A stretch of DNA of 58,377 nt from Candidatus Odoribacter faecigallinarum. GTDB taxonomy: Bacteria > Bacteroidota > Bacteroidia > Bacteroidales > Marinifilaceae. Below are positions 2,423 through 49,916 of this stretch, one piece after another; within the stretch, counting starts at the first letter, position 1; the number at the start of each line of letters is the position of its first letter. Position numbers and translations under genes: made by a program. The notes below the pieces were generated by a model, which had not been told where the DNA came from, made no database searches, and saw only the letters and a list, made by a program, of their open reading frames with translations. The DNA lies in assembly GCA_019114285.1 (NCBI GenBank), contig DXFT01000021.1, forward strand, positions 1 through 58,377, given 5' to 3'.

Positions 2423-4267
2423 ATGTGTGGTATAGTTGGCTATTTGGGAGGCAGGGATGCCTATCCAGTTTTGATAAAAGGATTGCATCGGTTGGAATAC
2501 CGGGGCTATGACAGTGCGGGCATCGCCATGGTGTCCGCTTCCGGTGAGTTGAACCTCTATAAATCCAAAGGCAAGGTGGCAGACTTGGAGCGCTTTGCTG
2601 AATCCAAGGACATTTCCGGCACCATCGGTATTGCCCACACCCGTTGGGCTACCCACGGCGAACCCAATGACCTCAATGCGCACCCTCACTACTCCCAATC
2701 CAAGAACCTGGCGTTGATACACAACGGCATCATCGAGAACTATTCCGTTCTCCGTCTGGAACTCGAGAGCAAGGGCTTCCGTTTCCGCAGCAGCACGGAC
2801 ACCGAGGTCATCGTTTACCTCATTGAATACATCATGCAGACCAACGGCGTGGACCTCTGTACTGCCGTCCAGTTGGCGCTTCACCAGGTAGTCGGCGCCT
2901 ACGCCATTGCCCTGGTGGCAAAGGACAACCCTGACCAAATCATCGCTGCCCGCAAGAGCAGCCCTCTCGTCGTGGGAATCGGGGAAGGGGAATACTTCCT
3001 CGCTTCAGACGCTACCCCCATCGTGGAATACACCGACAAGGTGGTTTACCTCAATGACGGGGAAATTGCCGTCATCCGCCGGGACGCTCCCTTGAAAATC
3101 GTGGACCTCGACAATGTGGAGATTACCCCTGAGGTCAAGCGTCTTGCCATGAACCTCAGCCAGCTCGAAAAGGGGGGCTATCCTCACTTCATGCTCAAGG
3201 AAATCTACGAGCAGCCCCAGACCCTCTACAACTGCATCCGCGGGCGCATCAACGTCGAGGGTACCAACGTTGTCCTTTCCGGCGTGATAGACAACCGCGA
3301 CAAGTTCCTTCATGCTTCCCGCATCATCATTGTTGCCTGTGGCACTTCCTGGCATGCCGCCCTCATCGGCGAGCACCTCATCGAGGACCTCTGCCGCATC
3401 CCCGTGGAGGTGGAGTATGCCTCCGAATTCCGGTACCGCAATCCCGTCATTTGTCCCGGTGACATCGTCATTGCCATCTCCCAGTCCGGGGAGACAGCCG
3501 ACACCCTTGCCGCCGTCGAGTTGGCAAAATCCCGTGGTGCCTTCATCTACGGCATCTGCAACGTCGTGGGCTCTTCCATCGCCCGGGCAACCGATTCAGG
3601 TTCCTATATCCACGTCGGCCCCGAAATCGGCGTGGCATCCACCAAGGCGTTCACGGGACAGGTCACCGTCCTTTCCATGCTGGCCCTCACCCTTGCCCGC
3701 CTGAAAGGCACCATCGGGGAGGACAAGTTTGTCCGCATGGTGCAGGGGCTCCAGGCCATCCCTGACAAAATCAAGGAAGTACTCGACCATGCCGATGCCA
3801 TTGCCGACCTCTCCAAAATATTCACTTACGCCCACAACTTCATCTACCTTGGGCGCGGCTACAACTATCCTGCCGCCCTCGAAGGAGCACTCAAGCTCAA
3901 GGAAATATCCTACATCCATGCCGAGGGCTACCCGGCTGCCGAGATGAAGCACGGTCCCATCGCCCTCATTGATGCCGAAATGCCGGTAGTTGCCATAGCA
4001 ACCACGGACAGCATCTATGAAAAGACCATCTCAAATATACAGGAAATCAAGGCACGCCGTGGCAAAGTCATTGCCATCGTCACTGAAGGCGACAGCGTTG
4101 TCCGTTCCATTGCGGACTACTGCATCGAGGTGCCCCGCGTTGAGGAACCCTTTGCCCCCCTCGTGGCTTCCGTGCCCCTCCAGCTTCTGGCATATTACAT
4201 TGCCGTCCATAAAGGGCGCGACGTGGACCAACCCCGTAACCTGGCGAAATCCGTCACTGTGGAATAA
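2423..4267 (+). CDS. glmS: Glutamine--fructose-6-phosphate transaminase
   Basis: N-terminal MCGIVG, GIAHTRWATHG, SQSGETADT, C-terminal DQPRNLAKSVTVE. Confidence 0.98.
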   Translation: MCGIVGYLGGRDAYPVLIKGLHRLEYRGYDSAGIAMVSASGELNLYKSKGKVADLERFAESKDISGTIGIAHTRWATHGEPNDLNAHPHYSQSKNLALIHNGIIENYSVLRLELESKGFRFRSSTDTEVIVYLIEYIMQTNGVDLCTAVQLALHQVVGAYAIALVAKDNPDQIIAARKSSPLVVGIGEGEYFLASDATPIVEYTDKVVYLNDGEIAVIRRDAPLKIVDLDNVEITPEVKRLAMNLSQLEKGGYPHFMLKEIYEQPQTLYNCIRGRINVEGTNVVLSGVIDNRDKFLHASRIIIVACGTSWHAALIGEHLIEDLCRIPVEVEYASEFRYRNPVICPGDIVIAISQSGETADTLAAVELAKSRGAFIYGICNVVGSSIARATDSGSYIHVGPEIGVASTKAFTGQVTVLSMLALTLARLKGTIGEDKFVRMVQGLQAIPDKIKEVLDHADAIADLSKIFTYAHNFIYLGRGYNYPAALEGALKLKEISYIHAEGYPAAEMKHGPIALIDAEMPVVAIATTDSIYEKTISNIQEIKARRGKVIAIVTEGDSVVRSIADYCIEVPRVEEPFAPLVASVPLQLLAYYIAVHKGRDVDQPRNLAKSVTVE

Positions 4268-4296
4268 CTGTGTTCCCCTTAGGGGTGGACCTGCGC

Positions 4297-4322
4297 ATCG
4301 GGGGAGATTGCCCTCCCCCGAT
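4297..4322. terminator. Hairpin between convergent glmS and DUF6266-like genes
   Basis: ATCGGGGGAG-ATTGCC-CTCCCCCGAT perfect 10-bp stem followed by T-rich sequence. Confidence 0.6.
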
Positions 4323-4356
4323 TATCTTTAATCCTTCATCGTTAATCGTTCATCTC
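4322..4356 (-). repeat. Heptamer tandem repeat, 5 units
   Basis: TTATCTT TAATCCT TCATCGT TAATCGT TCATCTC on +; contains the stop codon of the 4342-4998 gene. Confidence 0.85.
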
Positions 4357-4998
4357 CATGCCGAGGCTGCCGAGGTAAAAGCTGTCTGATGCCGTGTCCT
4401 CATACTTCCCCTTGAAAAAACCATAGACGTGCGCCTTCCCGACTTGCTCCGGCACTGTCCATTCATACCTGCCCGTCCGCCGCTCCGCCTGCGTCTCCGT
4501 TGCCACCATGATGTCTTCGTCACTCTTGTCCTCGCGGATGGTGTGTACTGCGATTTGCAGCCTGTCGTTTTCGGAAAGGGGCGTGTCTCCCGCTGCCGTG
4601 TCCCACGTGATGAGCATCTTGCCCCCTTCGCCCGCTTCCATCTTCACCCACCGGGGTACAAGCAAGTCCCCCTTCGTGACCCACAACTGCGAGTGGTCGA
4701 TAATCTCCCCGTTCCCGTCCAGGTTGCGGATATTGCAGCTCATGAACAGGTTATACCCGTTCATTGTCGTTCCTTCCGTCACAGACTTCCAATTGTAATA
4801 GATGAACCAGTCGAAACAGCCGTACAGGTCTGCGATGCCCTTCATCCGCGTGCGTTGCGCGGTCTGTTTCGGGCTTCTCGGGTTCTTCACCTCTCCGGGG
4901 CATTGGCGCACCCGCAATTGCCCGTTTACCTCATAAAAAATCAGGTTTCCCACCTTTCCTTTGGCATTTCCTAATACGCCTGGTTTGATAACTCCCAT
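4342..4998 (-). CDS. DUF6266-like Bacteroidetes protein of unknown function
   Basis: N-terminus MGVIKPGVLGNAKGKVGNLIFY..NPRSPKQTAQR, GYNLFM and C-terminal SDSFYLG match the family pattern as recalled. Confidence 0.75.
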   Translation of the reverse strand: MGVIKPGVLGNAKGKVGNLIFYEVNGQLRVRQCPGEVKNPRSPKQTAQRTRMKGIADLYGCFDWFIYYNWKSVTEGTTMNGYNLFMSCNIRNLDGNGEIIDHSQLWVTKGDLLVPRWVKMEAGEGGKMLITWDTAAGDTPLSENDRLQIAVHTIREDKSDEDIMVATETQAERRTGRYEWTVPEQVGKAHVYGFFKGKYEDTASDSFYLGSLGMEMND

Positions 4999-5049: not shown

Positions 5050-5340
5050 CTTGTTCCCCGCTTGCCGTCCCCTGCGTGCCTGTTGGCATGTCCTGCCGTT
5101 GCCGTAAAGCATCCTGGGGCTTTCCAAGGGGCATGTAGGGGGTAACTAAAGGGAAGCTCCGTGGCAATAATAATCATTTTATTTGATATTTCCAAATAAA
5201 AAACATATTAATTGCATTACAGAAAGGAGATAATAAGGAGTTGATAAGGTTGTAATCAGGAAATATGAAGAAAATATGCAGAAGTTTCCCCCTAGTTACC
5301 CCCTGGCAACCTCTTAGCTGCCCCTCGGATATTCCCCGAA
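5050..5340. repeat. Degenerate 11-bp-periodic arrays flanking a promoter
   Basis: AG(G) at 5225, 5236, 5247, 5258, 5269, 5280; C-runs start at 5288, 5299, 5310, 5321; G-runs end at 5131, 5142, 5153. Confidence 0.8.
5165..5196 (-). promoter_or_regulatory. Probable promoter of the DUF6266-like gene
   Basis: Minus strand TTTG, 20 nt, TATTATTG (one mismatch to TAnnTTTG). Confidence 0.6.
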
Positions 5341-5510: not shown

Positions 5511-5837
5511 ATGACAAGTTGGATAATATTGATTGTGGCAGGGCTTTTTGAGTCGGGCTTCGCCTTTTGCCTCGGGAAGATGAAGGGGTTGTCCGGGACG
5601 GAGTATTGGTTGTGGGGGGCAGGGTTTCTTGCCTGCCTGGCGATGAGCATGGTGTTGCTGGCAAAGGCGGTGCAGGTGTTGCCCATCGGGACAGCCTATC
5701 CCGTGTGGACGGGCATCGGGGCAGTGGGGACGGTGCTACTGGGGATTTTCTTTTTCCATGAGCCGGCAACGTTCTGGCGATTATTTTTCATTGTCACGCT
5801 GATCGCCTCGGTCATCGGGCTGAAGATGGTGTCTTGA
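5511..5837 (+). CDS. SMR/DMT family small multidrug transporter (SugE/Gdx-like)
   Basis: 108 aa, four hydrophobic helices, WIILIVAGLFE with membrane Glu, LPIGTAYPVWTGIGAVG. Confidence 0.9.
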   Translation: MTSWIILIVAGLFESGFAFCLGKMKGLSGTEYWLWGAGFLACLAMSMVLLAKAVQVLPIGTAYPVWTGIGAVGTVLLGIFFFHEPATFWRLFFIVTLIASVIGLKMVS

Positions 5838-5849
5838 AGGAGGGAGGGG

Positions 5850-6350
5850 ATGATGTTCAGGGAGATGAGACGCCGGAGGCAGGCATTGCCCGAGGGGGAG
5901 TGCGTGGCTATTTTGGAACGGATGACATCGGGGGTGCTGGCGGTGGAGGGGGACGGGGGTTACCCGTATGCCGTGCCGTTGAGTTATGTGTATGCTGGGG
6001 GAAAGTTGTATTTCCACAGCGCGCGGGAGGGACACAAGGTGGACGCCCTGCGGCGGAACGCGAAGGCATCGTTTTGCGTGGTGGAGCGTGACGAGGTAGT
6101 GGCGGAGGAATACACCACTTATTTCCGGAGCGTGGTGGTGTTCGGGCAGGTGCGGTTTGTGGAGGAGGAGAGGGAGAAGCTGGCGGCGCTGGAGTTGCTG
6201 GCGGAGAAGTATGCCCCGGGGGAACGGGAGCAGCGGCAGCGGGAAATCGCGCAGGGGTTCGACCACCTGTATGTGTTGGAGCTTGACGTGGAGTGCATGA
6301 CGGGGAAGGAGGCGGTGGAATTGCTGCGGCAACGGAAGGGCGGGGGATAA
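5850..6350 (+). CDS. nim: Nim-family (5-nitroimidazole reductase-like) pyridoxamine-phosphate-oxidase-fold protein
   Basis: MFREMRRRRQ, ILERMT, GYPYAVPLSYVY, YFHSA, TTYFRSV, MTGKEA follow the Bacteroides Nim pattern. Confidence 0.8.
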   Translation: MMFREMRRRRQALPEGECVAILERMTSGVLAVEGDGGYPYAVPLSYVYAGGKLYFHSAREGHKVDALRRNAKASFCVVERDEVVAEEYTTYFRSVVVFGQVRFVEEEREKLAALELLAEKYAPGEREQRQREIAQGFDHLYVLELDVECMTGKEAVELLRQRKGGG

Positions 6351-6353
6351 ACA

Positions 6354-6393
6354 GCATCCCCGGGAGGCCGTGGCACGCTCCCGGGGATGTTTG
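6354..6393 (+). terminator. Intrinsic terminator after the nim-like gene
   Basis: CATCCCCGGGAG / CTCCCGGGGATG 12-bp stem followed by TTTG. Confidence 0.7.
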
Positions 6394-6531
6394 TCTTGTG
6401 CGGAGCAGGGGTTATTCTGTCTTTACCTGTTTCTTTTTGGATTCCTTGTACAGTTGTATTTCTGCCCATATCCCTGCGCAAAGGGCGAGGAAGCCGAAAA
6501 ATCCCATGAATAGTATCAGTCCCATACGTTT

Positions 6532-8463
6532 TTAGAATTTGAATTGGACGCCTGCCAAGGCTGTGGCGCGGGGCATAGGGTAACCGGCATTGATTTCATA
6601 GCGCTGGGCGAGGAGGTTCTCGCCGCGTGCCCAGATGTCGAGCCAGCGGGTGGCTTGGAATCGGGCGCGGAGGTTCCAGAGCACGAAGTCCTCCGTGGTT
6701 TCCGTGCCCCGTCCGTTGGCGGGGACGGAGGTGTAGAGGCTGCCGATGTATTGGACGCCCGTGGATACGGACCAACGGTGGCGGGCATAGAGCGCGCCGG
6801 CGTAGAGTTTGTGCTCGGGGGCGGCGATGACGGGCGTTTCCATGTGGAGGAAGCTGTAGTTGGCATCGACGGACCAGGCTTGGGAAATGCGCCAGGCGGC
6901 TTGGAGCTCAACCCCGGTGTTGGAGAGGGAGCCGGTGTTCATGTTGAGGGGCGTGGTTCCCTCGCGGGGGACGGTGACGATGAGGTTCTTGGCGTCGATG
7001 TGGAAGAGGTTGACGCCGTAGGTGAGCCTCCCGTCAAGGAGCCGCTGGGAGAGGGCGATTTCATAGTTCCACATGGACTCGGGTTGCAAGTCCGGGTTCT
7101 GTGGGGGGAACATGTACATCTCGCGGATGGAGGGGTAGCGGAAGCCTTTGGAGGCGGAGGCTTTGAGTTCAATGGAACGGGGGAGGTGGAAGGAGAGCCC
7201 TGCCTGGGGTATCCATTCGGTGCCCACGTGGGAATGGTGGTCGGCGCGGATGCCTGCGTCGATGGTGAGGAAGGTGCCGATGTTCTGGCGGAAGTCGATG
7301 TATCCGGCTATTTCATGGTTGTGCCTTTGGAGGTAGTCGTCGTGCTCGCCGGCACGCTCGCCCTCGATGTAGTCGTTCCATTTCTCTCCCCCGAAGCGGT
7401 ACCAGTCGATGCCTGCGGTGAGGCGGTTGCCCCGGAAGAGGCGGGCGCTCTGGTAGGCGGAGATGCCGAGCATGTTGTCGTGGGAGATGAAGCGGTAGAG
7501 GCGGGGGGTGCTGTTGTCATCGGGGTCGGCGGTGTAGCCGTCGTTAATCCAGTGGTCACCCCAGTTGTAGAAGAAGCTGATGGCTCCTGAGGTGCGTTCA
7601 TGGTCGTTCTCGAGGGCGAAGGAGGTCATGCCGCGGGTGACGCGCTGGTCTGCATCCTCGAGGGGCTCGCTGAGGCTCCCGGGCTGGGAGGCGTTGAAGT
7701 GGGTGACGTTCACATCTGCCCGCACGTTCCAATGCGGGGAGAGTTCATATCCCAGCTTGGCGTATCCGCCGTATTGCTCGAATCCCAGGTTGCGGCGGTG
7801 TCCGTCGGTGCGGTTGTAGGAGAGGGAGAGTATGCTGGAGAATTTGCCGGCATGGATGCGGTTGGTGAGCTCGGATTCCAAGGTGTTCCAGGAGCCGTAG
7901 CCGATGCGGGCATCGGTGCGGACGCCTTGCTCGTGCATCCGGCGGGTGACAATGTTGACCACACCTCCCATGGCATTGGAGCCGTAGAGGACGGATGCCG
8001 GTCCCCGAAGGACTTCCACCCGTTCAGCCATGAGGGACTGGGCAGCGTCGGCAATGGGATGCCCGAAGAGCCCCATGTATTGCGGGTGCCCGTCGATAAG
8101 CACCATGAGGCGGGAGGAGGAGCCGCTCAAGCCGCGGAGGGAGATGCCCCCGGCTGCGCCGTCGGAGACGCCATAGCCCATGATGCCACGGGAGGTGACG
8201 AAAAGCCCGGGTACCTGTTCCGTGAGTATGGGCAGAAGGGAGGGTTGCAGGCTTTGTTCTATTTGCTGCCTCCCGACGACGGAAACGGTGAGGGGGAGGT
8301 GGCGGATGTCGGTGGCGTTGCGCGTGCCGGTGACAACTACCTGTTCGATGTCGTAATGCCGCGAGACGGTGAGGGTGTCCTTGTTGCCGGTGGCAGTTTG
8401 CTGCGCCAAGGCAGGTAGGCAGGCGATGGCTGCCGCGGTGAGTGTAAGTATGCTTTTCTTCAT
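6532..8463 (-). CDS. TonB-dependent outer membrane receptor
   Basis: Signal peptide MKKSILTLTAAAIACLPALAQ (start 8463), VVVTGTR, ERVEVLRGPASVLYGSNAMGGVVNI plug motif, terminal Phe. Confidence 0.92.
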   Translation of the reverse strand: MKKSILTLTAAAIACLPALAQQTATGNKDTLTVSRHYDIEQVVVTGTRNATDIRHLPLTVSVVGRQQIEQSLQPSLLPILTEQVPGLFVTSRGIMGYGVSDGAAGGISLRGLSGSSSRLMVLIDGHPQYMGLFGHPIADAAQSLMAERVEVLRGPASVLYGSNAMGGVVNIVTRRMHEQGVRTDARIGYGSWNTLESELTNRIHAGKFSSILSLSYNRTDGHRRNLGFEQYGGYAKLGYELSPHWNVRADVNVTHFNASQPGSLSEPLEDADQRVTRGMTSFALENDHERTSGAISFFYNWGDHWINDGYTADPDDNSTPRLYRFISHDNMLGISAYQSARLFRGNRLTAGIDWYRFGGEKWNDYIEGERAGEHDDYLQRHNHEIAGYIDFRQNIGTFLTIDAGIRADHHSHVGTEWIPQAGLSFHLPRSIELKASASKGFRYPSIREMYMFPPQNPDLQPESMWNYEIALSQRLLDGRLTYGVNLFHIDAKNLIVTVPREGTTPLNMNTGSLSNTGVELQAAWRISQAWSVDANYSFLHMETPVIAAPEHKLYAGALYARHRWSVSTGVQYIGSLYTSVPANGRGTETTEDFVLWNLRARFQATRWLDIWARGENLLAQRYEINAGYPMPRATALAGVQFKF

Positions 8464-8488
8464 GTCTATTGTGTTTCTGATTACGGCA

Positions 8489-8571
8489 CAAAGATAGTGA
8501 AACAGCGTTTTTCCCCGCGTAAACAAATTACGGTTGTTTATACCTATATTACTTCTTTTTGTTTATCTTTG
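8489..8571. promoter_or_regulatory. Divergent -7 elements for the TonB receptor and purL
   Basis: TATCTTTG on minus at 8489-8496 and on plus at 8564-8571. Confidence 0.55.
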
Positions 8572-8608
8572 CGGTTGGATTCACGTGAAATAAATAGTAC
8601 TGAAGTAT

Positions 8609-11600
8609 ATGATTATCGTTTTCTATCAGAAGGACAGGACGGTGTATGCCGTGCATTATGGGATGTCCGAAAATTCCCTTGACAAGAGTAAGTTGGAATG
8701 GTTGTTCAGCGGGGCGCGCCGGTTGCCTGAAGCGGAGCTGGACGGGTATTTTGTCGGTCCGCGCCGGGAGATGATTACGCCGTGGAGCACGAATGCGGTG
8801 GAAATTACGCAGAATATGGGTATTGACGGGATTGTGCGCATCGAGGAATTTGTGCAGACGGATGACGAGCACGCCCCGTTCGACCCGATGTTGCAGGCGT
8901 TTTACAAAGGGCTGGACCAGCATATTTTTACGATAGACAAGCAGCCTGACCCGGTGGTTTATATTGAAAATATCCGGGCTTACAATGAGCAGGAGGGGTT
9001 GGCATTGAGCGGGGATGAGATTGCTTATCTGGAAGGGCTGGAGCAGAAGTTGGGCAGGAAGCTGACGGATTCGGAGGTATTTGGTTTTTCACAGGTCAAT
9101 TCGGAGCATTGCCGCCACAAGATTTTCAACGGCACATTTGTGATTGACGGGGAGGAGAAGGAGAGTTCGTTGTTCCAACTGATAAAGAAGACTTCGCGGG
9201 AGAACCCGAACCGGATTGTTTCAGCCTATAAGGACAATTGCGCGTTTATCGAAGGACCGCAGGTGGAGCAGTTTGCCCCGCATACGCCGGACAAGCCTGA
9301 TTTTTATGAGGAACGGGAAATAGGAACGGTGATTTCGTTGAAGGCAGAGACGCATAATTTCCCGACGACGGTGGAGCCGTTCAATGGGGCGGCAACGGGT
9401 AGCGGGGGCGAGATACGGGATAGGATTGCAGGGGGGCAGGCAGCTTTCCCGTTGGCAGGGACAGCAGTTTACATGACTTCTTACCCGCGGATGGAAGCCT
9501 CCCGGAAGTGGGAGCAGTGCATCCAGCCGAGGAAGTGGCTGTACCAGACTCCGGAGGATATTCTTATCAAGGCTTCGAACGGGGCTTCGGACTTCGGGAA
9601 CAAGTTCGGGCAGCCGCTGATTTGCGGTTCGTTATTGACGTTCGAGCATGAGGAGGACGGGAAGACTTTCGGTTATGACAAGGTGATTATGCAGGCAGGG
9701 GGCATTGGTTTTGCCAACCGTGAGCAAGCGATAAAACAGACTCCGGAGGCAGGGGAGAAGGTGGTGTTGCTGGGAGGTGACAATTACCGCATCGGCATGG
9801 GGGGAGGCGCTGTTTCTTCCGTGAACACGGGGGTTTACGCGGGAGCGATTGAGCTGAATGCCGTGCAGCGTTCAAACCCGGAGATGCAGAAACGGGTTTA
9901 TAATGCCATCCGTGCGATGGGCGAGAGCGAGCATAACCCGATTGTCTCTATCCATGACCACGGCGCCGGCGGGCATCTGAATTGCTTGTCCGAGCTGGTG
10001 GAGGAGACCGGGGGCGTGGTGCATATTGAGAAGTTGCCTGTCGGTGACCCGACCCTTTCGGCTAAGGAAATCGTGGGCAATGAATCGCAGGAACGGATGG
10101 GGTTGGTGATGAAGGAGGAGGATGTGGCGACTTTGCAGCGCGTTGCCGACCGGGAACGTGCCCCGATGTACGTGATTGGGGAGACCACGGGCGACCATCG
10201 TTTTGTCTTTGAGAATGCGAAGACCCAGGAGAAGCCGATTGACCTGGAGCTGAAGGACATGTTTGGCAATCCGCCCAAGACGGTGATGGTGGACAAGACG
10301 GTGAAGGAGAAGTACAGCGATTTGGAATACGATGTTGCCCGTCTGGAGGAATATTTGGAACAAGTCTTGCAGATTGAGGCGGTGGCTTGTAAGGATTGGT
10401 TGACCAACAAGGTGGACCGTTCGGTGACGGGGAAAGTGAGACGGCAACAATGCGTGGGGGCTTTGCATCTGCCTTTGAGCGATGTAGCCGTGATGGCATT
10501 GGATTATAGCGGTTACCGTGGTGTGGCGACTTCCATCGGACATGCCCCTGTGGCTGCTATGGCGGATGCGGGAGCCGGTTCCCGCCTGGCGATAGCCGAG
10601 GCTTTGACCAATCTGGTATGGGCTCCGGTGGAGAAGGGGTTGCAGGGTGTTTCGCTTTCTGCCAACTGGATGTGGCCCTGCCGGAATGAGGGGGAGGATG
10701 CCCGTTTGTATCAGGCGGTGCAGGCGGCAAGTGATTTTGCCATTGCCTTGGGTGTGAATATTCCTACGGGGAAGGATTCGCTTTCCATGACACAGAAGTA
10801 TGAGGACAAGAAGGTGCTTGCGCCGGGGACTGTCATTATTTCGACGGTGGGCGAGGTGACCGATTTCCGGAAGGTGGTGGATCCGGTGTTGAAGTGCGAG
10901 CCGGAGAGCGAGTTGGTGTATATTGATTTTTCGTTTGACAAATTGGAACTGGGCGGGTCAAGCCTTGCCCAAGTATTGAATAAAGTGGGCAGGCATGTGC
11001 CTGACGTGAAGGACAGTGCCTATTTCGCACGGGCTTTTGAAGCGGTGCAGGCGTTGGTGGAGAAGGGCATGGTGCTTGCCGGGCATGACATTTCGGCAGG
11101 CGGCATGGTGGTTGCCTTGCTGGAAATGTGCTTTGCGGACAACCGTGCCGGTCTGAAGGTGGATTTGTCTTTCTTGAAGGAAAAGGACGTGATGAAGCTG
11201 CTGTTTGCAGAGAACCCGGGCGTGCTTGTCCAAATCCGGGATGCGGAAGCCAAGGAGGTTGCCGCCTTGCTGGACGATGCCGGCATTGCATACGCTTTTA
11301 TCGGAAAGCCGGGACAGGCAGGCAAGTTGGACATCCGGAAAGACGATGCTTCGTGGAGCCTGGACATTGCTTCGTTGCGTGACTTGTGGTTCAAGACTTC
11401 CTATCTTTTGGACCGCCGGCAGAGTGGCGAAGAGAAGGCACTGGAGCGTTACCGGAGCTATAAGCACAATGAGTTGCGCTATGATTTCCCGAAAGGCTTT
11501 ACCGGCAAGCTGAAGGATTTGGGCTTGGACGCAGGGCGTAAGGGCAAGTCGGGAATCCGGGCTGCAGTCATCCGCGAGAAAGGGTGCCAGTGCGAACGGG

Positions 11601-12307
11601 AGACTGCCTGGGCTTTGCATCTGGCAGGCTTTGACGTGAAGGATGTGCACATGACAGACCTGATTACCGGACGGGAAACGCTGGAGGATGTGAATATGAT
11701 TGTTTTCGTTGGCGGGTTCTCCAATTCCGACGTGCTGGGTTCGGCAAAGGGATGGGCAGGAGCTTTCAAATACAATGAGAAGGCACGCATTGCTTTGGAG
11801 AATTTCTACAAGCGGGAGGATACGTTGAGCCTCGGCATTTGCAACGGGTGCCAGCTGATGGTGGAACTGGGGCTGATATACCCGGAACAGGAAGTGATGC
11901 CCAAGATGCTGCACAACGATTCCCACAAATTGGAATCGGGTTTCGTGAACGTAACTATCCAGCATAGTCCTTCCGTATTGTTGAAGTCTTTGGAAGGCTG
12001 CCGTCTGGGCGTGTGGATTGCCCACGGCGAGGGGAAATTCGATTTGCCATACGCGGAGAGCGAGTATGCCATTGCCTTGAAGTACAGTTATGATGTTTAT
12101 CCAGCCAATCCGAACGGTTCGCGTTACGCCACGGCAGGCATTGTCAGCAAAGACGGGCGGCACCTGGCGATGATGCCGCACCTGGAGCGGTCTATTACTC
12201 CGTGGAACTGGGCATATTATGACGAACAACGCCCGGAGGACGAGGTGAGCCCGTGGATTGAGGTGTTTGTCAATGCGCGGAAATGGGTGGAGGAGAACAG
12301 GAAATAA
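8609..12307 (+). CDS. purL: Phosphoribosylformylglycinamidine synthase, large fused form
   Basis: NSEHCRHKIF, KAETHNFPT, SIHDHGAGG, glutaminase LGICNGCQ and MMPHLER. Confidence 0.97.
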   Translation: MIIVFYQKDRTVYAVHYGMSENSLDKSKLEWLFSGARRLPEAELDGYFVGPRREMITPWSTNAVEITQNMGIDGIVRIEEFVQTDDEHAPFDPMLQAFYKGLDQHIFTIDKQPDPVVYIENIRAYNEQEGLALSGDEIAYLEGLEQKLGRKLTDSEVFGFSQVNSEHCRHKIFNGTFVIDGEEKESSLFQLIKKTSRENPNRIVSAYKDNCAFIEGPQVEQFAPHTPDKPDFYEEREIGTVISLKAETHNFPTTVEPFNGAATGSGGEIRDRIAGGQAAFPLAGTAVYMTSYPRMEASRKWEQCIQPRKWLYQTPEDILIKASNGASDFGNKFGQPLICGSLLTFEHEEDGKTFGYDKVIMQAGGIGFANREQAIKQTPEAGEKVVLLGGDNYRIGMGGGAVSSVNTGVYAGAIELNAVQRSNPEMQKRVYNAIRAMGESEHNPIVSIHDHGAGGHLNCLSELVEETGGVVHIEKLPVGDPTLSAKEIVGNESQERMGLVMKEEDVATLQRVADRERAPMYVIGETTGDHRFVFENAKTQEKPIDLELKDMFGNPPKTVMVDKTVKEKYSDLEYDVARLEEYLEQVLQIEAVACKDWLTNKVDRSVTGKVRRQQCVGALHLPLSDVAVMALDYSGYRGVATSIGHAPVAAMADAGAGSRLAIAEALTNLVWAPVEKGLQGVSLSANWMWPCRNEGEDARLYQAVQAASDFAIALGVNIPTGKDSLSMTQKYEDKKVLAPGTVIISTVGEVTDFRKVVDPVLKCEPESELVYIDFSFDKLELGGSSLAQVLNKVGRHVPDVKDSAYFARAFEAVQALVEKGMVLAGHDISAGGMVVALLEMCFADNRAGLKVDLSFLKEKDVMKLLFAENPGVLVQIRDAEAKEVAALLDDAGIAYAFIGKPGQAGKLDIRKDDASWSLDIASLRDLWFKTSYLLDRRQSGEEKALERYRSYKHNELRYDFPKGFTGKLKDLGLDAGRKGKSGIRAAVIREKGCQCERETAWALHLAGFDVKDVHMTDLITGRETLEDVNMIVFVGGFSNSDVLGSAKGWAGAFKYNEKARIALENFYKREDTLSLGICNGCQLMVELGLIYPEQEVMPKMLHNDSHKLESGFVNVTIQHSPSVLLKSLEGCRLGVWIAHGEGKFDLPYAESEYAIALKYSYDVYPANPNGSRYATAGIVSKDGRHLAMMPHLERSITPWNWAYYDEQRPEDEVSPWIEVFVNARKWVEENRK

Positions 12308-12340
12308 TCAGTTTTTTTTGATATTTATTGTTTCATGAAG

Positions 12341-12373
12341 ATGGGGTTGCCTTGCGGGGCAACCTCATTGTTT
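12341..12373 (+). terminator. Probable terminator after purL
   Basis: ATGGGGTTGCC / GGCAACCTCAT stem followed by TGTTT. Confidence 0.6.
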
Positions 12374-12390
12374 AAATTTGAAACCTGGGT

Positions 12391-13551: not shown

Positions 13552-13571
13552 TGATTAACGATGAATGATGC
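13530..13571 (+). repeat. Heptamer tandem repeat, 6 units
   Basis: ACAATTA ACGATGA ATGATTA ATGATTA ACGATGA ATGATGC spanning the amidohydrolase stop. Confidence 0.85.
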
Positions 13572-14037: not shown

Positions 14038-14913
14038 ATGATGAATAAGATTATAATGATGGCTTTATGCCTGTTTGCCTTTTTGTCCGTGAAGGCAACC
14101 GGATTAGACGGGGATGTTATTCATATTGATGGAAAATATTGGGGGTTGTTAGCAAAGCCAATAAATAACAATCGTTTGTTATATAAAAGGTTAATGGATT
14201 TTCTTCCGGAAAATCGCAGTATGTCAACCGCTGATTGGGATGGTTATACTGCTTTTTGGAAAATGGAAGATGGTTATCTTTATTTGCAGCATATAGAAGT
14301 AACTGTATATGATAAAGATCGGAATAGCTTGACCATTGCTTTCTTACCAGATGATTTGAAACAGGTGTTTGCTTTTTATTACGCTAATGGGAAGATTCGT
14401 GCCGATTGGTTTACCGGACAAATACGGGCAGTGCATGGAGAATTTGTGAGATATATTCACAGTGGTTTTAATCGCAATTTGGAAACGGAGCAGGTAATAG
14501 ATGTGAAGGAAGGGCAGGTGTTAAGAATGGAACTTTATCATAACTATAAGAAAGACGGGTTGAAAATGGAATATTTATTTAATGAATTAGACCGACGTTT
14601 TCCGTGGGAAGAGTTTCCTAAATACCAAGCATACAAGCTTTATTTCACTATTCAGAATTATCTATTGACTGCTGATGGGCGTTTTGTGGATTGTGATATA
14701 ACGATACATGTCCGGCCTACGAGGGAAGAAATACGCGATAGTGCTCATCCGTTAGTGAGGGCTTTTAAGGAAATAGCGAGATCTGTGTATCCATTGGAAG
14801 TGTATTTTATTAACGGTAAGTTTACCCTTATACATGATAAATGGACCCACCCATTTTCCATGGAAAGGACAGAGCAGATAAAGCATCGCTTTGTTTCTTC
14901 AAAAAGTATTTAA
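14038..14913 (+). CDS. Hypothetical exported protein, AT-rich
   Basis: 291-aa ORF with signal peptide (MNKIIMMALCLFAFLSVKA), own promoter, visibly lower GC than neighbours. Confidence 0.75.
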   Translation: MMNKIIMMALCLFAFLSVKATGLDGDVIHIDGKYWGLLAKPINNNRLLYKRLMDFLPENRSMSTADWDGYTAFWKMEDGYLYLQHIEVTVYDKDRNSLTIAFLPDDLKQVFAFYYANGKIRADWFTGQIRAVHGEFVRYIHSGFNRNLETEQVIDVKEGQVLRMELYHNYKKDGLKMEYLFNELDRRFPWEEFPKYQAYKLYFTIQNYLLTADGRFVDCDITIHVRPTREEIRDSAHPLVRAFKEIARSVYPLEVYFINGKFTLIHDKWTHPFSMERTEQIKHRFVSSKSI

Positions 14914-32009: not shown

Positions 32010-32011
32010 TC

Positions 32012-43850: not shown

Positions 43851-43881
43851 TGTATATTTGCAGGAAGGTAAATTGAGAATT

Positions 43882-44679
43882 ATGTCTTTTGGTATAGCAG
43901 ATTTGAGCATTATTCCGATGCGCCGGGAACAGTCGGAGCGGAGCGAAATGGTATCGCAGATTCTTTTTGGGGAATTGTATGAAGTTTTGGAGATAGGAGA
44001 AAAATGGGTATATGTACGCCTTTTGCATGACGGTTACGAAGGGTGGATTGACCGCAAGATGCTCCTTCCTGTGACGGAAGAATATGCCGTCCGTTATCAG
44101 ATGGAAAGGCAGCAACTTGCCACGGGGACTTTTCATATTGTCCAGAAAAAGGGGGATTGGGGAAACCAATTGATTGTGCCGGGCAGTGTTTTCCCTTTCT
44201 GGGATGCTGAGACAAAAACCATGCAGGTAGGCGACCGGCATTATCTGTTGGTTTCCAAGCAAAGGGAATTGGCGGGAGGGAATGTGCGTGACCTGTTGAT
44301 ATCCGCAGCTTTGATGTATTATAACGCCCCTTATCTTTGGGGAGGACGTTCCCTGTACGGGATAGATTGTTCCGGGCTGGCGCAAATGGCATATCGCCTT
44401 GCCGGCATAGATATGCCCCGGGATGCTTCCCAGCAGGCTGTTTTGGGGGAGTTGCTTTCCTTTTTGGAGGAAGCGTTGCCGGGCGACCTGGCTTTTTTTG
44501 GTGATGATGCGGGCGCCATAACCCACGTCGGCATCCTGTGGGGGCATGGGAGGATTATTCATGCTTCCGGGAGGGTCCGGGTGGATAGAATCGACCATCA
44601 GGGAATCTTTAATGAAGAATTGAAACGTTACACGCATAATTTGAAATTGATAAAGCGGATAATACAAGGCAATTCATAA
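43882..44679 (+). CDS. NlpC/P60 (C40) peptidase with N-terminal SH3-like domain
   Basis: PYLWGG, GIDCSG, PRDASQQ, PGDLAFF, HVGI, IHAS. Confidence 0.92.
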   Translation: MSFGIADLSIIPMRREQSERSEMVSQILFGELYEVLEIGEKWVYVRLLHDGYEGWIDRKMLLPVTEEYAVRYQMERQQLATGTFHIVQKKGDWGNQLIVPGSVFPFWDAETKTMQVGDRHYLLVSKQRELAGGNVRDLLISAALMYYNAPYLWGGRSLYGIDCSGLAQMAYRLAGIDMPRDASQQAVLGELLSFLEEALPGDLAFFGDDAGAITHVGILWGHGRIIHASGRVRVDRIDHQGIFNEELKRYTHNLKLIKRIIQGNS

Positions 44680-44693
44680 TAATTTTTCAGGAA

Positions 44694-46937
44694 ATGTCAG
44701 AAATTGCGCCTTTAATATCAGATTTGGCAACTATCTTAATTGTTGCCGGTTGTGTGACCATCCTTTTCAGATGGTTGAAGCAACCCGTCATATTGGGCTA
44801 TATCGTTGCCGGCTTGTTTACCGGCCCGGCACTGAGTTTTTTCCCGACGGTTTCAGACACCGCCAATATCAAGATTTGGGCGGATATAGGTGTCATTTTC
44901 CTTTTGTTTGCCATGGGGCTGGACTTTTCCTTCAAAAAATTGCTGAACGTGGGATTGAGTGCCGTGATGGCGACTTTGACCATTGTGTGCGGGATGATGT
45001 TTCTGGGATATACGGCAGGGAATCTGATGGGATTTTCACATATCAGTTGCATATTTTTGGGAGGGATGCTGTCCATGTCTTCAACGGCTATAGTCTTCAA
45101 GGCTTTCAATGACATGAACCTCCTCCAGCAAAAATTCACGGGAATAGTCTTGGGCATTCTGGTGGTGGAGGATCTTGTCGCCGTCGTGATGCTGGTCATT
45201 TTGTCCACATTGGCGGTCAGCCAGCATTTTGAAGGAGGGGCATTGGCTGGGAGCATATTGAAGTTGGGGGCATTCCTCATCTTCTGGTCGGTCCTGGGCA
45301 TTTACCTGCTGCCGACATTGCTGAACAAGATTCGCCGTTTCGTCACGAATGAAATCCTGTTAATAGCCTCCTTGGGCTTGTGCCTCTTGATGGTGATGAT
45401 TGCAGTCAGGGCGGGTTTTTCCTCAGCCTTGGGGGCATTTGTCATGGGGTCCCTGCTGGCGGAAACTGTTGAGGGCGAAAAAATCAGCCAGGTGGTGCAG
45501 CCTGTCAAAGACTTTTTTGCAGCCATATTTTTTGTTTCAGTGGGTATGATGATAGACCCCGGCGTCATCTGGGAATACATCGTGCCCATCCTTGTCCTGA
45601 CCCTCCTTGTCCTGGTCGGGCAAATCTTTTTCGCGACTTGCGGCGTATTGCTTTCCGGCCAGCCCCTGAAGATTGCCATGCAATCCGGTTTCTCGCTCAC
45701 CCAGGTCGGGGAATTTTCCTTCATCATCGCTTCCCTTGGAGTATCCCTGAAGGTGACGGACGACTTCCTTTATCCGGTCATCGTTGCGGTGTCCGTTATA
45801 ACGACTTTCCTTACCCCTTACATGATACGCTTCTCCGCTCCTGCTTACGATTGGACGGAAAAACACCTGCCGGCAGGAATTAAAGGCATTTTGGCGCGTT
45901 ACGCTGCGGGTTCCTTGTCCGTCCGCCACCAGACCGATTGGAACCGTTTGATTCGCTCCATGTTTGGCAGCGTGGTGGTTTATCTGGTGATTTGCATTGC
46001 GTTCATCGCCTTGTTCTTTTCCCAGGCCTATCCTTTCATCGAAGCCCATTTGCCGGGAATGAAAGGCAAAGTGCTGGGCGCCTTGCTTTTGCTTGGCGTG
46101 CTTTCCCCTTTGTTGTGGGCAATGATTATGAAGAAAAACCATTCTCCCGAGTTCCAGAAACTTTGGACGGACAGCCGCGTGAACCGGGGGGCTTTGGTCT
46201 CCCTGGTCCTGATTAAAATCATGCTTTGCGTGGTCATAGTGATGAGCGTGGTCGTGAAACTGTTTAATGTGGCATTGGGGTTGGGACTCTTGATTTCCCT
46301 GCTCCTGGTGGCGGTCATTTACTTCTCCAAATGGATTCGCAGGCGCTCCCGCCTTATCGAGGAGCGATTTGTGGAAAACTTCCAGGGCACGGGCAGCCAG
46401 TCCGGCGGAAACTTGTCCGCCCAGTTAAGGGAAGAAAGTCCGTTGGCAAACTTGCATACTGCCGACTTTGTCGTGAGCCCAGCCTCCGTATATGTGGGCA
46501 AAACATTGAAGGAATCCGCTTTCCGGACCCTCTTCCGGATTAACATTATCTCAATTGAGCGCGGGGAAGATAAAATAAACATCCCCGAAGGGATTGAAAT
46601 GCTTTATCCGTATGACAAAATCACGGTCGTCGGAACGGATGACGATTTAGGGGCATTCAGGCAGGCATTGGAAGAAAAGCAAGCATGCGCGGAGCCCCGT
46701 GGAAAGGCTTCCACAACGGGCATGAAGATTAAAAACGTCTGCTTGGACGCAGCCTCTTCCGTGATAGGCAAGACCATACGCGAAATAAAGTCGGAAAACC
46801 TCATCATCCTGGGCATTGAACGCAATGGCGCCGTAATGATGAATCCCTCTCCTGCGCTCTCCTTCCGGGAAGGCGATGTGGTTTGGATGGTGGGCAAAGA
46901 GGGGGTTGAGGACCAATTCCTGGCTCGCTGCCAATAA
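44694..46937 (+). CDS. Cation:proton antiporter (CPA2) with C-terminal TrkA-C domains
   Basis: KQPVILGYI, SMSSTAI, LVVED, FFVSVGM, QVGEFSFIIA. Confidence 0.9.
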   Translation: MSEIAPLISDLATILIVAGCVTILFRWLKQPVILGYIVAGLFTGPALSFFPTVSDTANIKIWADIGVIFLLFAMGLDFSFKKLLNVGLSAVMATLTIVCGMMFLGYTAGNLMGFSHISCIFLGGMLSMSSTAIVFKAFNDMNLLQQKFTGIVLGILVVEDLVAVVMLVILSTLAVSQHFEGGALAGSILKLGAFLIFWSVLGIYLLPTLLNKIRRFVTNEILLIASLGLCLLMVMIAVRAGFSSALGAFVMGSLLAETVEGEKISQVVQPVKDFFAAIFFVSVGMMIDPGVIWEYIVPILVLTLLVLVGQIFFATCGVLLSGQPLKIAMQSGFSLTQVGEFSFIIASLGVSLKVTDDFLYPVIVAVSVITTFLTPYMIRFSAPAYDWTEKHLPAGIKGILARYAAGSLSVRHQTDWNRLIRSMFGSVVVYLVICIAFIALFFSQAYPFIEAHLPGMKGKVLGALLLLGVLSPLLWAMIMKKNHSPEFQKLWTDSRVNRGALVSLVLIKIMLCVVIVMSVVVKLFNVALGLGLLISLLLVAVIYFSKWIRRRSRLIEERFVENFQGTGSQSGGNLSAQLREESPLANLHTADFVVSPASVYVGKTLKESAFRTLFRINIISIERGEDKINIPEGIEMLYPYDKITVVGTDDDLGAFRQALEEKQACAEPRGKASTTGMKIKNVCLDAASSVIGKTIREIKSENLIILGIERNGAVMMNPSPALSFREGDVVWMVGKEGVEDQFLARCQ

Positions 46938-46946
46938 CTTTCGGGG

Positions 46947-47564
46947 TTATAGCATTTCCTTTGTGGCAGGACCGCAGCAAAAGAGCATGTCCAATATGCT
47001 GAGGTCGGGGACAAAGGGAGTCCGGTCGCAAAATACCTGGCGGTAAGGACGTACGGGAAATCCCATGTTTTCTGCTCCCTGTCCCTTTTTAGGATGGATG
47101 GCGTCCCGTAAGTCCGTATATCCCGGCGTTCCTGCCGGGACGTAATCCGTGGTGAGCAAAATTTCCTTCCCGATGCCCAGCATCTTTAGCAGGGCATTGA
47201 GAATGCCTTGGTTCAAATCCAGAAGGAAAGCCTCCCGTTTCCGGAAAAAAGGTTCGATGTCATCAATATAATACTCGTAATAGGGTGAATTTTTATATGC
47301 CGATTCAATGCCTTTGAAATGCAGTTTCTGCCAAGGCGTGGCGTACGTGATTTTCAAGTCTTTCGTCAGCGTCTTGCTGTTGGCTTTCACTACAGGCACT
47401 GTCAGTGCCAGCACTCCGTTGGCAGCCATGATGTTGCACCGGTTCCTGTAACTCTGTTTCCCAAAGTTTTCATATTGTTCGATGGTGACCTGCGTTGCCT
47501 GCGTGATGGCGGAAAAATAAGAAATGGGGGGGAAATAAGCTGTTGTCAATAAAAGGTTATTCAT
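46947..47564 (-). CDS. WbqC-like family protein
   Basis: YFPPISY, KQSYRNRC, LTVPV, AYKNSPYY, Y.Q.F, LSILDMLF. Confidence 0.85.
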   Translation of the reverse strand: MNNLLLTTAYFPPISYFSAITQATQVTIEQYENFGKQSYRNRCNIMAANGVLALTVPVVKANSKTLTKDLKITYATPWQKLHFKGIESAYKNSPYYEYYIDDIEPFFRKREAFLLDLNQGILNALLKMLGIGKEILLTTDYVPAGTPGYTDLRDAIHPKKGQGAENMGFPVRPYRQVFCDRTPFVPDLSILDMLFCCGPATKEML

Positions 47565-47596
47565 TTCTTCTGGTTTTCTTATGGGTAAATTCCTTG

Positions 47597-47628
47597 CAAA
47601 TGTATGTATTTTATTTTTTATTTCCAAA
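47597..47628 (-). promoter_or_regulatory. Consensus promoter upstream of the WbqC-like gene
   Basis: Minus strand TTTG, 20 nt, TACATTTG. Confidence 0.7.
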
Positions 47629-47655
47629 TGAATTGCTTGTTATTTCCATCTATAG

Positions 47656-47765
47656 AAGGAGATGATAAGGAGATGACAAGGAAATAAGAAGGGAATAAGA
47701 TGGAGATAACCAGAAAAAAGGCATAAGAAAATCACAAGGAATCCATAAGGAACAAGGAAGGAAAG
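47656..47765. repeat. 11-bp-periodic purine-rich array
   Basis: AAGGAGATGAT AAGGAGATGAC AAGGAAATAAG AAGGGAATAAG ATGGAGATAAC; second phase with AAG at 47725, 47736, 47747, 47758. Confidence 0.8.
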
Positions 47766-47927
47766 CATGGGCTTCATAAAAATTTAATTGTTAAAATTGC
47801 TTGGAGGTGTTGGCGGTTAAAAAAAAATGTGTTATCTTTCGATTGCTAAAGGAAGGTGGAAGTGCGAAGGGGATGAGGGGGAGGGAGACGGGATGGTTTG
47901 GCGAAGGGTTAACAAAATAGAGATATT

Positions 47928-49916
47928 ATGGTGAAGTATGATGTCACATTATCCGACCCGCTGTTAGAGCCATTTAAGCCGGTGATACGTCGCCGGCAGG
48001 AAAAGAGTTTGCTGAAGGAATTGGAGTTTACCGGCAGGGAAAGGCGTTTGTCCGATGTTTTCAATAATCATTTGTATTTCGGGTTGCATGAGACGGCAGA
48101 GGGGTGGGTGTTCAGGGAATGGGCGCCTAATGCCACTGCCATTTACCTTGTCGGGGAGTCGAGCGACTGGCAAAGGCGCGAGGATTTCCGGTTGAGGTTG
48201 TTGGGCAATGGGGTGTGGGAATTGAAATTGCCGAAGGAGAGGATGTGGCATGGGATGTTGTATAAGTTGTGGGTGGTCTGGACTGGCGGCGGAGGTGAGC
48301 GTATCCCGGCGTATGCGAGGCGTGTGGTGCAGGACGATGAGACGAAGGTGTTTACTGTGCAGGCGTGGCAGCCGGAACGCCCGTATGAGTGGAAGTATCC
48401 GAAGGTGGGGCGCATTAACCATCCGCTGATTTATGAAGCTCACGTGGGGATGTGCATGGAGAACCGGCGCGTTTCGACGTTCAATGAGTTCCGGGCTTAC
48501 GTGTTGCCGAGGATTGTGGAGTTGGGGTACAATGCCATTCAGTTGATGGGGATACAGGAGCATCCGTATTATGGTTCATTCGGTTATCAGGTGTCGAGTT
48601 TTTATGCCGTCAGTTCGCGTTTCGGGACGCCGGAGGATTTGAAGCGGCTGATTGACGAGGCGCACGGGTTTGGCATCGGGGTGGTGATGGATTTGGTGCA
48701 TTCGCATTCCGTGAGGAACGAGGCGGAGGGGTTGGGTTGTTTCGCGGGGGACGAGAGCCAGTATTTTTATCCGGGGGAACGGGGGGAGCATAAGTTGTGG
48801 AATTCCCGCTGTTTTGATTACGGGAAGAATGAGGTTGTCAGTTTTTTGCTGTCGAACTGCAAGTATTGGCTGGAGGAGTTCCATTTTGACGGTTTCCGCT
48901 TTGACGGGGTGACGAGCATGTTGTATTGGGACCATGGCGTGGGACGGGATTTTACGGAGTATAAGTTTTATTACGACGGGAATGAGGACGAGGACGCCAT
49001 AACGTACCTGACGTTGGCGAACAAGTTGTGCCACGAGGTGGACAGCGGTGTGATTACCATTGCCGAGGACATGAGCGGGATGCCCGGCTTGGCGGAGAAG
49101 GCGGAGGACGGGGGAATGGGGTTTGATTTCCGGATGAGCATGGGGGTGCCTGATTATTGGATTAAACTGGTGAAGGAAAAGCGGGACGAGGAATGGCATG
49201 TGGGGGATATGTTTTATGAGTTGACGAACAAGCGGAAGGAGGAGCATACGATTAGTTACGCAGAGAGCCACGACCAGGCGATGGTGGGGGACAAGACGTT
49301 GTTTTTCAGGTTGGTGGACAAGGAAGTTTATACCTCGATGAGCGTGTTTGACCATAGCCTGGTGATTGACCGGGGGATGGCGTTGCACAAGATGATTCGT
49401 TTGTTGACGATATCGACGGCTGGAGACGGGTATTTGAATTTTATGGGCAATGAATTTGGTCATCCGGAATGGATAGATTTTCCGAGGGAGGGGAACGGTT
49501 GGAGTTATGAGCATGCGAGGCGGCAGTGGAGCCTGGTGGATGACAAGGATTTGCGTTTCCGTTTTTTGAACGAGTTTGACAAGGCGATGATTGCTTTGGC
49601 AAGGGAGGAGTCTTTCTTTGAACCGGTGCCGCAGCCTGTGGTGAGGGACAATGGGAGGCAGGTGTTGGTGTTCGGACGTGGGGATTTCCTGTTTGTATTC
49701 AATTTTAACCCTTCTGCGTCGTTTCCCGATTATGCCTTTGAAGTGGCGGCAGGGAAGTATGTGACGGTGCTGGACACGGACAGCCTCCGTTTTGGCGGGT
49801 TTGGGAGAATTGATGATTGCCAGGAGCATTTTACCCTGTATGAGGGGGGCAGGCATGTGTTGAGTTTGTATGTGCCCGCGCGGGCGGGGTTTGTTTTGAA
49901 AAGGATTGTAGAATAG
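47928..49916 (+). CDS. glgB: 1,4-alpha-glucan branching enzyme (GH13)
   Basis: REWAPNA, IYEAHVG, SFGYQV, DGFRFDGVTSM, IAED, YAESHDQ. Confidence 0.94.
   Translation: MVKYDVTLSDPLLEPFKPVIRRRQEKSLLKELEFTGRERRLSDVFNNHLYFGLHETAEGWVFREWAPNATAIYLVGESSDWQRREDFRLRLLGNGVWELKLPKERMWHGMLYKLWVVWTGGGGERIPAYARRVVQDDETKVFTVQAWQPERPYEWKYPKVGRINHPLIYEAHVGMCMENRRVSTFNEFRAYVLPRIVELGYNAIQLMGIQEHPYYGSFGYQVSSFYAVSSRFGTPEDLKRLIDEAHGFGIGVVMDLVHSHSVRNEAEGLGCFAGDESQYFYPGERGEHKLWNSRCFDYGKNEVVSFLLSNCKYWLEEFHFDGFRFDGVTSMLYWDHGVGRDFTEYKFYYDGNEDEDAITYLTLANKLCHEVDSGVITIAEDMSGMPGLAEKAEDGGMGFDFRMSMGVPDYWIKLVKEKRDEEWHVGDMFYELTNKRKEEHTISYAESHDQAMVGDKTLFFRLVDKEVYTSMSVFDHSLVIDRGMALHKMIRLLTISTAGDGYLNFMGNEFGHPEWIDFPREGNGWSYEHARRQWSLVDDKDLRFRFLNEFDKAMIALAREESFFEPVPQPVVRDNGRQVLVFGRGDFLFVFNFNPSASFPDYAFEVAAGKYVTVLDTDSLRFGGFGRIDDCQEHFTLYEGGRHVLSLYVPARAGFVLKRIVE

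Follow-up and report, generated by a model that had tools for sequence, protein, structure and literature searches.

The DNA analysed here is a stretch of 58,377 nt from Candidatus Odoribacter faecigallinarum, referred to as the window, which is contig C130 of the genome assembly G000 (2.25 Mb, 200 contigs, 88% complete). It carries housekeeping genes on both strands, one gene of the uncharacterised family DUF6266, and four arrays of 11-bp tandem repeats. Across the genome such arrays are surrounded by halos of about 6 kb per side, i.e. a zone of roughly 12 kb centred on the array, in which the strand running outward is enriched in G at silent sites. Genes were called with a purpose-built dicodon model (1,914 genes in G000), and those in the window were named using NCBIfam and Pfam. 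The named relatives of the GlgB protein in the window are Bacteroidales and other Bacteroidota (51-64% identity), and the public runs with the window region have mostly chicken-gut labels. The features of the window are the following, with the strand given for stranded features only.

496-4998: left halo of the 5.2-kb array; C-rich + strand, glmS with a four-fold C of 0.57-0.58 and a skew of -0.53, U32 peptidase gene with -0.11
4342-4998, minus strand: DUF6266 gene, type A, 218 aa, read away from the 5.2-kb array; predicted basic N-terminal hairpin with three helices and a C-terminal FN3-like sandwich
5121-5328: 11-bp array of family 3 (8 genome copies), periodic core 5217-5328, mirror arm 5121-5158, upstream of the DUF6266 gene; halo odds ratio 4.4, the strongest in the window
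5511-13551: right halo of the 5.2-kb array; G-rich + strand over genes of both strands, skews of +0.48, +0.79, +0.70 (minus-strand TonB receptor), +0.41 (purL) and +0.27
14910-21208: left halo of the 21.4-kb array; minus-strand run of cys, sulfotransferase and MATE genes, skew from -0.04 to -0.45, graded toward the array within one gene orientation
21417-21487: gene-less 11-bp array of family 5 (4 copies), central palindrome at about 21418-21443; odds ratio 2.4
22320-25091: right halo of the 21.4-kb array; four-fold skew +0.33 and +0.26
37095-37142: gene-less 11-bp array of family 0 (54 copies); no skew step, odds ratio 1.24
43858-47627: left halo of the 47.7-kb array; skew drops to about zero, four-fold skew +0.11, -0.09 and -0.04
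47564-47765: gene-less 11-bp array of family 3 with mirror arms; odds ratio 2.6
47928-54458, plus strand: right halo of the 47.7-kb array; glgB and downstream glycogen genes, four-fold skew +0.59, +0.61, +0.47 and +0.35

The preliminary description of this DNA had proposed, from seven hand-counted lines, that the plus strand turns from C excess to G excess at the arrays near 5.2, 21.4 and 47.7 kb. All seven C/G counts are exact on recount. In the 1.5 kb to the left and right, the skew is -0.17 and +0.31 at 5.27 kb (Fisher p 4e-24) and -0.20 and +0.32 at 21.45 kb (p 6e-25), and the sign reverses as had been described. At 47.7 kb the values are +0.085 and +0.40 (p 8e-11), and here the skew only drops to about zero: left of the array it is +0.07 to +0.09 for the whole sequence and negative only at four-fold sites, e.g. 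-0.09 in the antiporter gene. The window has a fourth array (37,095-37,142), overlooked in the preliminary description, which has no step (p 0.17-0.67). To the right of the same array, the four-fold G of glgB is 0.63, against 0.21-0.42 in eight of nine relatives compared and 0.55 in the array-bearing sister species G016.

The repeats are not particular to the window. Period 11 is the main tandem period of G000, with 154 rows scoring at least 40; period 10 has 9 such rows and period 12 has 47. A lag-11 scan found 127 loci, 121 of them intergenic, and lag scores as high as those of the arrays are reached by other lags in about 1% of gaps. The arrays form six families with 54, 22, 10, 8, 7 and 4 copies, together with six pairs and ten singles, and the unit sequence varies between families. 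Mirror arms are present in families 1-4, while families 0 and 5 show no excess, their mirror scores being 36 and 35 against 35 in control gaps. No 11-bp periodicity was detected in the flanks of the arrays. Convergent gaps have more than their share of arrays (16 of 42), as expected of insertions and not of promoters.

To compare arrays with other gaps we used the step in third-position skew at 525 gaps with at least 1.5 kb of flank on each side, and 10,000 shuffles inside strata of orientation and length as control. The mean step at the 68 gaps with an array is +0.293, the null mean is 0.143, and none of the 10,000 stratified permutations is as high. The skew switch proposed from the window thus tracks the arrays genome-wide, beyond what control gaps give. 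The 346 gaps more than 3 kb from any array have a mean step of -0.01. The step is positive in all four gene orientations (0.24-0.40, against -0.03 to +0.06 at non-array gaps), which bears out the earlier claim that it does not depend on orientation. An array is present at 27 of the 40 largest steps and at one of the 80 lowest, the base rate being 68 out of 525; 12 of the 40 largest lie more than 1.5 kb from any array.

The composition changes gradually around the arrays. At four-fold sites C on the top strand climbs from 0.20 to 0.35 toward the array, and G is 0.51 just past it and 0.34 by 10-15 kb. A raised GC content that fades with distance, also noted in the preliminary description, is found at four-fold sites as 0.72 near the array and 0.56-0.57 at 7-15 kb on the right side. 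The AT skew is about -0.2 on both sides and does not flip. Given this graded decay and the unchanged AT skew, the switches are not sharp inversion breakpoints, a possibility that had been raised against them. On the outward strand, which leaves the array in the 5'-to-3' direction, G has odds relative to the background of 1.69-1.76 within the first 2 kb, which then fall to 1.32 at 3-4 kb and to 1.04 at 6-7 kb; among the other bases the largest drop is that of A (odds 0.67), followed by T (0.85) and C (0.93). The gain of G is present on coding and template strands and in leading as well as lagging genes, and each of the 24 context classes shows it; its polarity is the same on both sides regardless of how the element faces.

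The odds ratio exceeds 1 at 89 of the 97 arrays with enough sites. The strongest halo measured belongs to an array on contig C24 of G000 with the layout of a divergent DUF6266 pair (odds ratio 5.7), and an array on contig C115 has 3.6. Family 2, with tightly conserved copies, has the weakest halo (median 1.08), and halo strength is not significantly related to the array score. When the sides are divided by the direction of the chromosomal fork, the odds are 1.61 downstream (co-directional) and 1.82 upstream. The outward-strand C drops only on the fork-facing side (0.88 vs 1.03), which is a smaller, origin-like component. The leading and lagging strands were here assigned by the skew of whole contigs, an approximate method on which neither the step test nor the permutations depend.

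The arrays also keep a distance from each other. Only 2 of 31 neighbour distances are below 6 kb, where 8-22 are expected in gap permutations (P at most 0.0007). The range within which arrays avoid each other equals the length of the halo. In 395 kb of the sister species G016 there are 18 arrays, and for 14 of them the end of the orthologous G000 gene has an array no more than 1.5 kb away (p 7e-5 for an expected share of 0.31). These conserved sites often carry a different repeat family in the two genomes, e.g. the gap before glgB holds family 3 in G000 and a family-0 array in G016. For an orthologous pair of DUF6266 genes present in both, the array family upstream is the same.

Among 20 genomes of the genus the number of DUF6266 profile matches varies from 0 to 42. 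The array-rich genomes G016 (42 matches) and G006 (38 matches) have a sawtooth skew, four-fold steps of 0.79 and 0.85, and the same base spectrum as G000. The ten genomes with 0-9 matches contain 3 arrays in 1,020 kb, and at corresponding genes the array-poor relatives have a smooth skew and an unremarkable composition. The four-fold C of glmS is 0.57-0.58 in G000, 0.85 in G016 and 0.22-0.30 in four other relatives. In a one-gene tree G000 and G016 are sisters and G006 stands apart, so that there are at most two independent cases of the halo. GC content and DUF6266 copy number are not significantly correlated over 14 genomes (rho 0.37, p 0.19). As a side observation, glmS of G016 (L166:2945-4787) is extreme, with C at 290 of 340 four-fold and 117 of 123 two-fold sites, although it lies at least 3.6 kb from a detected array; the genes in between are AT-richer and resemble later insertions.

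DUF6266 genes are linked to the arrays. G000 has 18 profile matches, and 10 of them have an array 70-1,900 bp upstream, from which the gene is always read away. An array lies upstream of 38 of 60 DUF6266 gene groups in the relatives and, across the phylum, at 19 of the 28 loci with room upstream (34 examined); the loci in relatives and phylum were picked from hit lists. Of 301 genomes sampled across the phylum, 37 have a profile match. In a quick tree the family splits into two old clades, with A first and B second in tandem, and the pairs branch together. Lysis genes recur beside DUF6266, namely a holin with three transmembrane segments (PF11351; 12 open reading frames, ORFs), an amidase (Amidase_2; 11) and an N-acetylmuramidase (4). 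Divergent DUF6266 pairs with a single array between them are found at L146, L167, L173, L176, L178 and L192. An unnamed protein of about 225 aa is encoded upstream of DUF6266/lysis cassettes at five loci, including L171:6935-7624, L189:3445-4116 and L161:222-884; it has no Pfam and no convincing PHROG match, and is a candidate accessory or processing factor.

The structure model of DUF6266 has a predicted local distance difference test (pLDDT) score of 94. Residues 1-60 are basic (11 K/R, 3 D/E) and the C-terminal domain is an FN3-like sandwich (Z about 8). For the N-terminal domain alone there is no fold match with a Z of at least 5 (best Z 3.7), no ribbon-helix-helix among the structure matches listed, and the best viral match is an uncharacterised protein at E 0.064. 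A sequence search of the PDB with DUF6266 gives three matches at E 0.35-0.93, none of them significant, a protein-atlas search returns only DUF6266 clusters, and two array motifs have 0 matches in viral contigs. In a phylum-wide scan of the genes beside DUF6266, which covered 64 of 103 ORFs, no replication gene recurs, and no partition ATPase is among the recurring neighbours. We consider the arrays likely docking sites of DUF6266 proteins.

To see whether the bias reflects mutation or fixation we used 50 variant positions within 5 kb of the 5.2-kb array, taken from the best 40 of 494 and the best 40 of 322 tool-ranked rows, of which 45 could be polarised by majority. On the outward strand the minor alleles have lost G 24 times and gained it 6 times, and lost C 13 times and gained it once. 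Minor alleles thus lose G more often than they gain it, so the silent-site composition is not at mutational balance, as expected if fixation upholds G. Substitution tables against the array-poor relatives are near saturation and not polarisable. Searches in five genomes for each of the candidate enzyme families found none that distinguishes array-rich from array-poor genomes. The mutS gene is present in all five, and the terminase family PF03354, the one terminase family searched, was not found in any of the five. The reverse transcriptase family PF00078 was not found in G016, and the Y1 HUH nuclease (PF01797) was not found in G006, with one weak match in G016 and two in G004. Besides MutS and MutS2, three extra MutS-domain proteins of 450-610 aa are encoded on contigs C1, C6 and C157 of G000; such proteins are also present in G016, G006 and G004, and not in G012.

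The assembly of the window was compared with other runs. Contigs of three other DNA runs tile positions 1-20 kb with few differences, and within the 5.2-kb array two contigs of run X1 overlap each other, so misassembly is excluded. The single DNA run with raw reads has a depth of about 1-3, and the RNA runs consist of contigs only, from which expression level and strand are not readable. In a contig of run X15 the pyridoxamine-phosphate-oxidase-like gene at 5838-6410 is skipped and replaced by 65 other letters, possibly a strain deletion. Two AT-rich genes, an AAA_15-type ATPase fragment at 21678-22319 and an unnamed ORF at 14038-14913, lie within halos and lack the bias; they are likely recent arrivals and could serve to date the halo. 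The window further contains a second dispersed repeat, short intergenic heptamer arrays at 4324-4354, 13533-13569, 17352-17382, 18811-18844 and 19763-19805, and rows of period 7 and 14 are common across G000 as well. Beside 13533-13568 the contigs of other runs differ in sequence, and the heptamer unit at 19773 is missing from some strains; these arrays may be insertion hot spots.

The preliminary description had suggested a bidirectional, strand-asymmetric process that starts at the arrays and reshapes silent sites of neighbouring housekeeping genes. This agrees with a signal that is genome-wide and independent of orientation, but is not supported in the form of ordinary origin firing. Only G rises on the outward strand, the AT skew is not flipped and the side co-directional with the fork is changed too; hence the arrays are not ordinary origins. 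Nicking, local synthesis, ssDNA exposure or transfer with biased conversion may be at work. The preliminary description did not connect the arrays, as a dispersed family, with DUF6266 and lysis genes.

The best reading, which we hold tentatively, is that copying starts at the arrays and that about 6 kb of flank is transferred in particles. Beyond the halo, the spacing and the gene linkage, we infer every step. Each DUF6266 clade would bind its own repeat family, with one unit per helical turn, and the paralogues A and B would together form a coat. A DNA-processing event of fixed polarity, performed by host enzymes or a separate helper, would start at the array on both strands and run for 2-6 kb. 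The copied stretch, probably coated, would be set free by the linked lysis genes and integrated by recombination in other cells. Through repeated transfer the arrays would home, one family would replace another at the same gap, and new arrays within the range of a neighbour would be purged. G would accumulate on the outward strand by error-prone synthesis of that strand, or by G alleles being favoured in the pairing of donor and recipient strands. Docking, outward copying and transfer are the simplest single account of one length scale for halo and spacing, of sites that persist while families swap, and of coat-like paralogues next to lysis genes. In its full form the proposal is a tail-less minimal gene transfer system of the Bacteroidota, with a DUF6266 A/B coat nucleating on the arrays and about 120 gene-less arrays, at least 7 kb apart, each starting copying and transfer of about 6 kb in both directions, frequently enough to have rewritten much of the genome in its silent sites, skew and GC content. 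This full form we regard as doubtful.

A number of results speak against copying and transfer from the arrays. The DUF6266 gene of the window is solitary, with neither a partner paralogue nor lysis genes. Halo strength does not follow the similarity of the copies (rho -0.06, not significant). In G015, with 22 DUF6266 copies, 0 arrays were found in 60 kb; DUF6266-linked arrays of low-copy relatives show a weak shift at most, and the step is not significant in G027 and five distant genomes (12 arrays). The DUF6266 fold has no convincing capsid match, and the protein matches nothing among phage protein families, phage records and viral contigs. A reverse transcriptase (PF00078), a BT4734-type primase, a DUF4373 initiator, a Y1 HUH nuclease and mutY, the last required by one version of the G-accumulation step, were all not found in G000, at its completeness of 88%, where PolA and DinB are single ordinary copies. 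In the minor-allele test the loss of C is just as strong as that of G, so the usual AT-ward mutation of bacteria may explain the result.

The nearest rival, in our estimate rather unlikely, is error-prone synthesis inside the cell without any transfer. The array would be a nick or priming site from which strand-displacing synthesis runs outward for 2-6 kb, with misinsertion of G or deamination of adenine in the displaced strand; DUF6266 would be a site binder and the lysis genes relics. This fits the outward polarity on both strands, the plateau followed by decay, the absence of a context preference and the A-to-G change on the outward strand, which is the biggest single change. Gains of G exceed gains of C among the minor alleles by 6 to 1. 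Taken relative to saturation, however, G000 and G016 have diverged at synonymous sites equally near arrays (0.76, 19 genes) and far from them (0.76, 38 genes), a comparison of low power near saturation. Synthesis by itself explains neither the even spacing nor the swapping of families, and the enzyme families searched yielded no candidate.

Another possibility is that R-loops or bidirectional non-coding transcription start from the arrays and leave the non-template, outward strand exposed, a situation known from the CpG-island promoters of vertebrates. The arrays do lie upstream of DUF6266 genes, sometimes between two divergent copies, and the composition resembles the pattern around CpG islands described in PMC2817419. 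The 112 ordinary divergent gaps, however, have no third-position step (-0.006), arrays are enriched in convergent gaps, and the bias continues unchanged for kilobases across genes of either strand, which makes this explanation improbable.

Back-up or restart origins for the normal replisome, evenly spaced for the benefit of the host, would account for the C-to-G polarity, the phased mirror repeats, the regular spacing, the conserved sites and the drop of C on the fork-facing side. We consider them quite improbable, since a normal fork would leave the co-directional side unchanged and this side is strongly changed, the AT skew does not flip, GC content is raised, and the effect is gone by 6-7 kb whereas the contig-wide skew persists. 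Reverse causation, i.e. mobile arrays preferring gaps with pre-existing pyrimidine-rich left and purine-rich right flanks, is very improbable. Sites that are kept while the repeat family changes, a halo strength independent of copy age, the large steps without an array nearby and halo-less arrays such as the one at 37.1 kb are in its favour; on the other hand, the same genes have an ordinary composition and a smooth skew in array-poor relatives, as seen from the four-fold C of glmS, and the halo is weakest in family 2, whose copies are tightly conserved, which is what one expects of a young family. Misassembly, inversions or foreign islands at the repeats are already largely refuted and almost certainly not the cause. 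Assemblies do break at repeats, with contigs of other runs ending at 5200, and skew changes can be faked by inversions at repeats (PMC7111523), yet the decay is graded and two-sided, the AT skew is unchanged, core genes lie in the halos, contigs of other runs agree, and independently assembled relatives have the same pattern.

Strand bias in bacteria is usually ascribed to one origin and to transcription. The present genome adds a third force, which is anchored at about 120 scattered sites and shifts the silent sites of core genes strongly, as in glmS of G016. Such genomes are a natural system for studying the increase of bacterial GC content by recombination or local synthesis, and DUF6266, a large uncharacterised family, gains a measurable footprint. 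They are also a warning that a sawtooth skew of this kind reflects biology and not misassembly.

The literature covered, which leaves subscription journals largely outside, holds no description of the halo and no text with the word DUF6266; the two-sided halo, the array spacing and the family swapping appear to be new. The arrays have the layout of phased 11-bp repeats in two arms upstream of a linked gene, like parC of plasmid R1, which lies just upstream of the gene of the small basic protein ParR. Here the copies are dispersed over the chromosome and belong to several families, the predicted protein combines hairpin-helices with an FN3-like sandwich, and the recurring neighbours include no partition ATPase. 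To our knowledge, no compositional halo is known for parC/ParR. Repetitive extragenic palindromes (REP/REPIN elements) and their RAYT genes likewise combine numerous intergenic copies that lack a gene with a few gene-linked masters; in our case the linked gene is DUF6266 and not an HUH nuclease, and the units are phased 11-mers. We know of no REPs that bias kilobases of flank. Filamentous archaeal viruses of the SIFV type have two paralogous coat proteins on A-form DNA, whose turn is 11 bp, and the tandem A/B clades of DUF6266 are likewise two paralogous basic helical proteins. The match between a SIFV coat chain and the DUF6266 N-terminal domain is at noise level (Z 3.2, root-mean-square deviation 5.2, 52 residues, rank 14), and the present system is bacterial and chromosomal with an FN3-like second domain. 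A diversity-generating retroelement has a reverse transcriptase and changes only adenines in a short target; the arrays differ in that PF00078 was not found in G000 or G016, T also drops and the zone is kilobases long.

In Bartonella, run-off replication is coupled to a gene transfer agent, with one origin, a range of hundreds of kb and a tailed-phage particle with a terminase (PMC2697382). The proposed logic is alike, with outward amplification from an element-derived site, packaging, transfer and lysis genes; our case has many sites on a kb scale, no PF03354 terminase found and no phage-type capsid match. The GC-skew peaks over alphaproteobacterial gene transfer agents and core genes are described in PMC9836097 as a codon-preference effect on coding strands, which the halo is not. 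Human CpG islands share with the arrays a two-sided asymmetry of origin polarity and a raised GC content at dispersed sites; that asymmetry (PMC2817419) is eukaryotic, of far longer range and not bound to a cassette of repeat and gene. The replication-origin switch of bacteria (PMC7111523) is similar in being C-rich to the left and G-rich to the right of a small repeat array. At oriC all leading/lagging biases switch and persist to the terminus, whereas the arrays number about 120 per genome, have a range of 6-7 kb, leave the AT skew unchanged and raise GC content, on top of a normal contig-wide skew.

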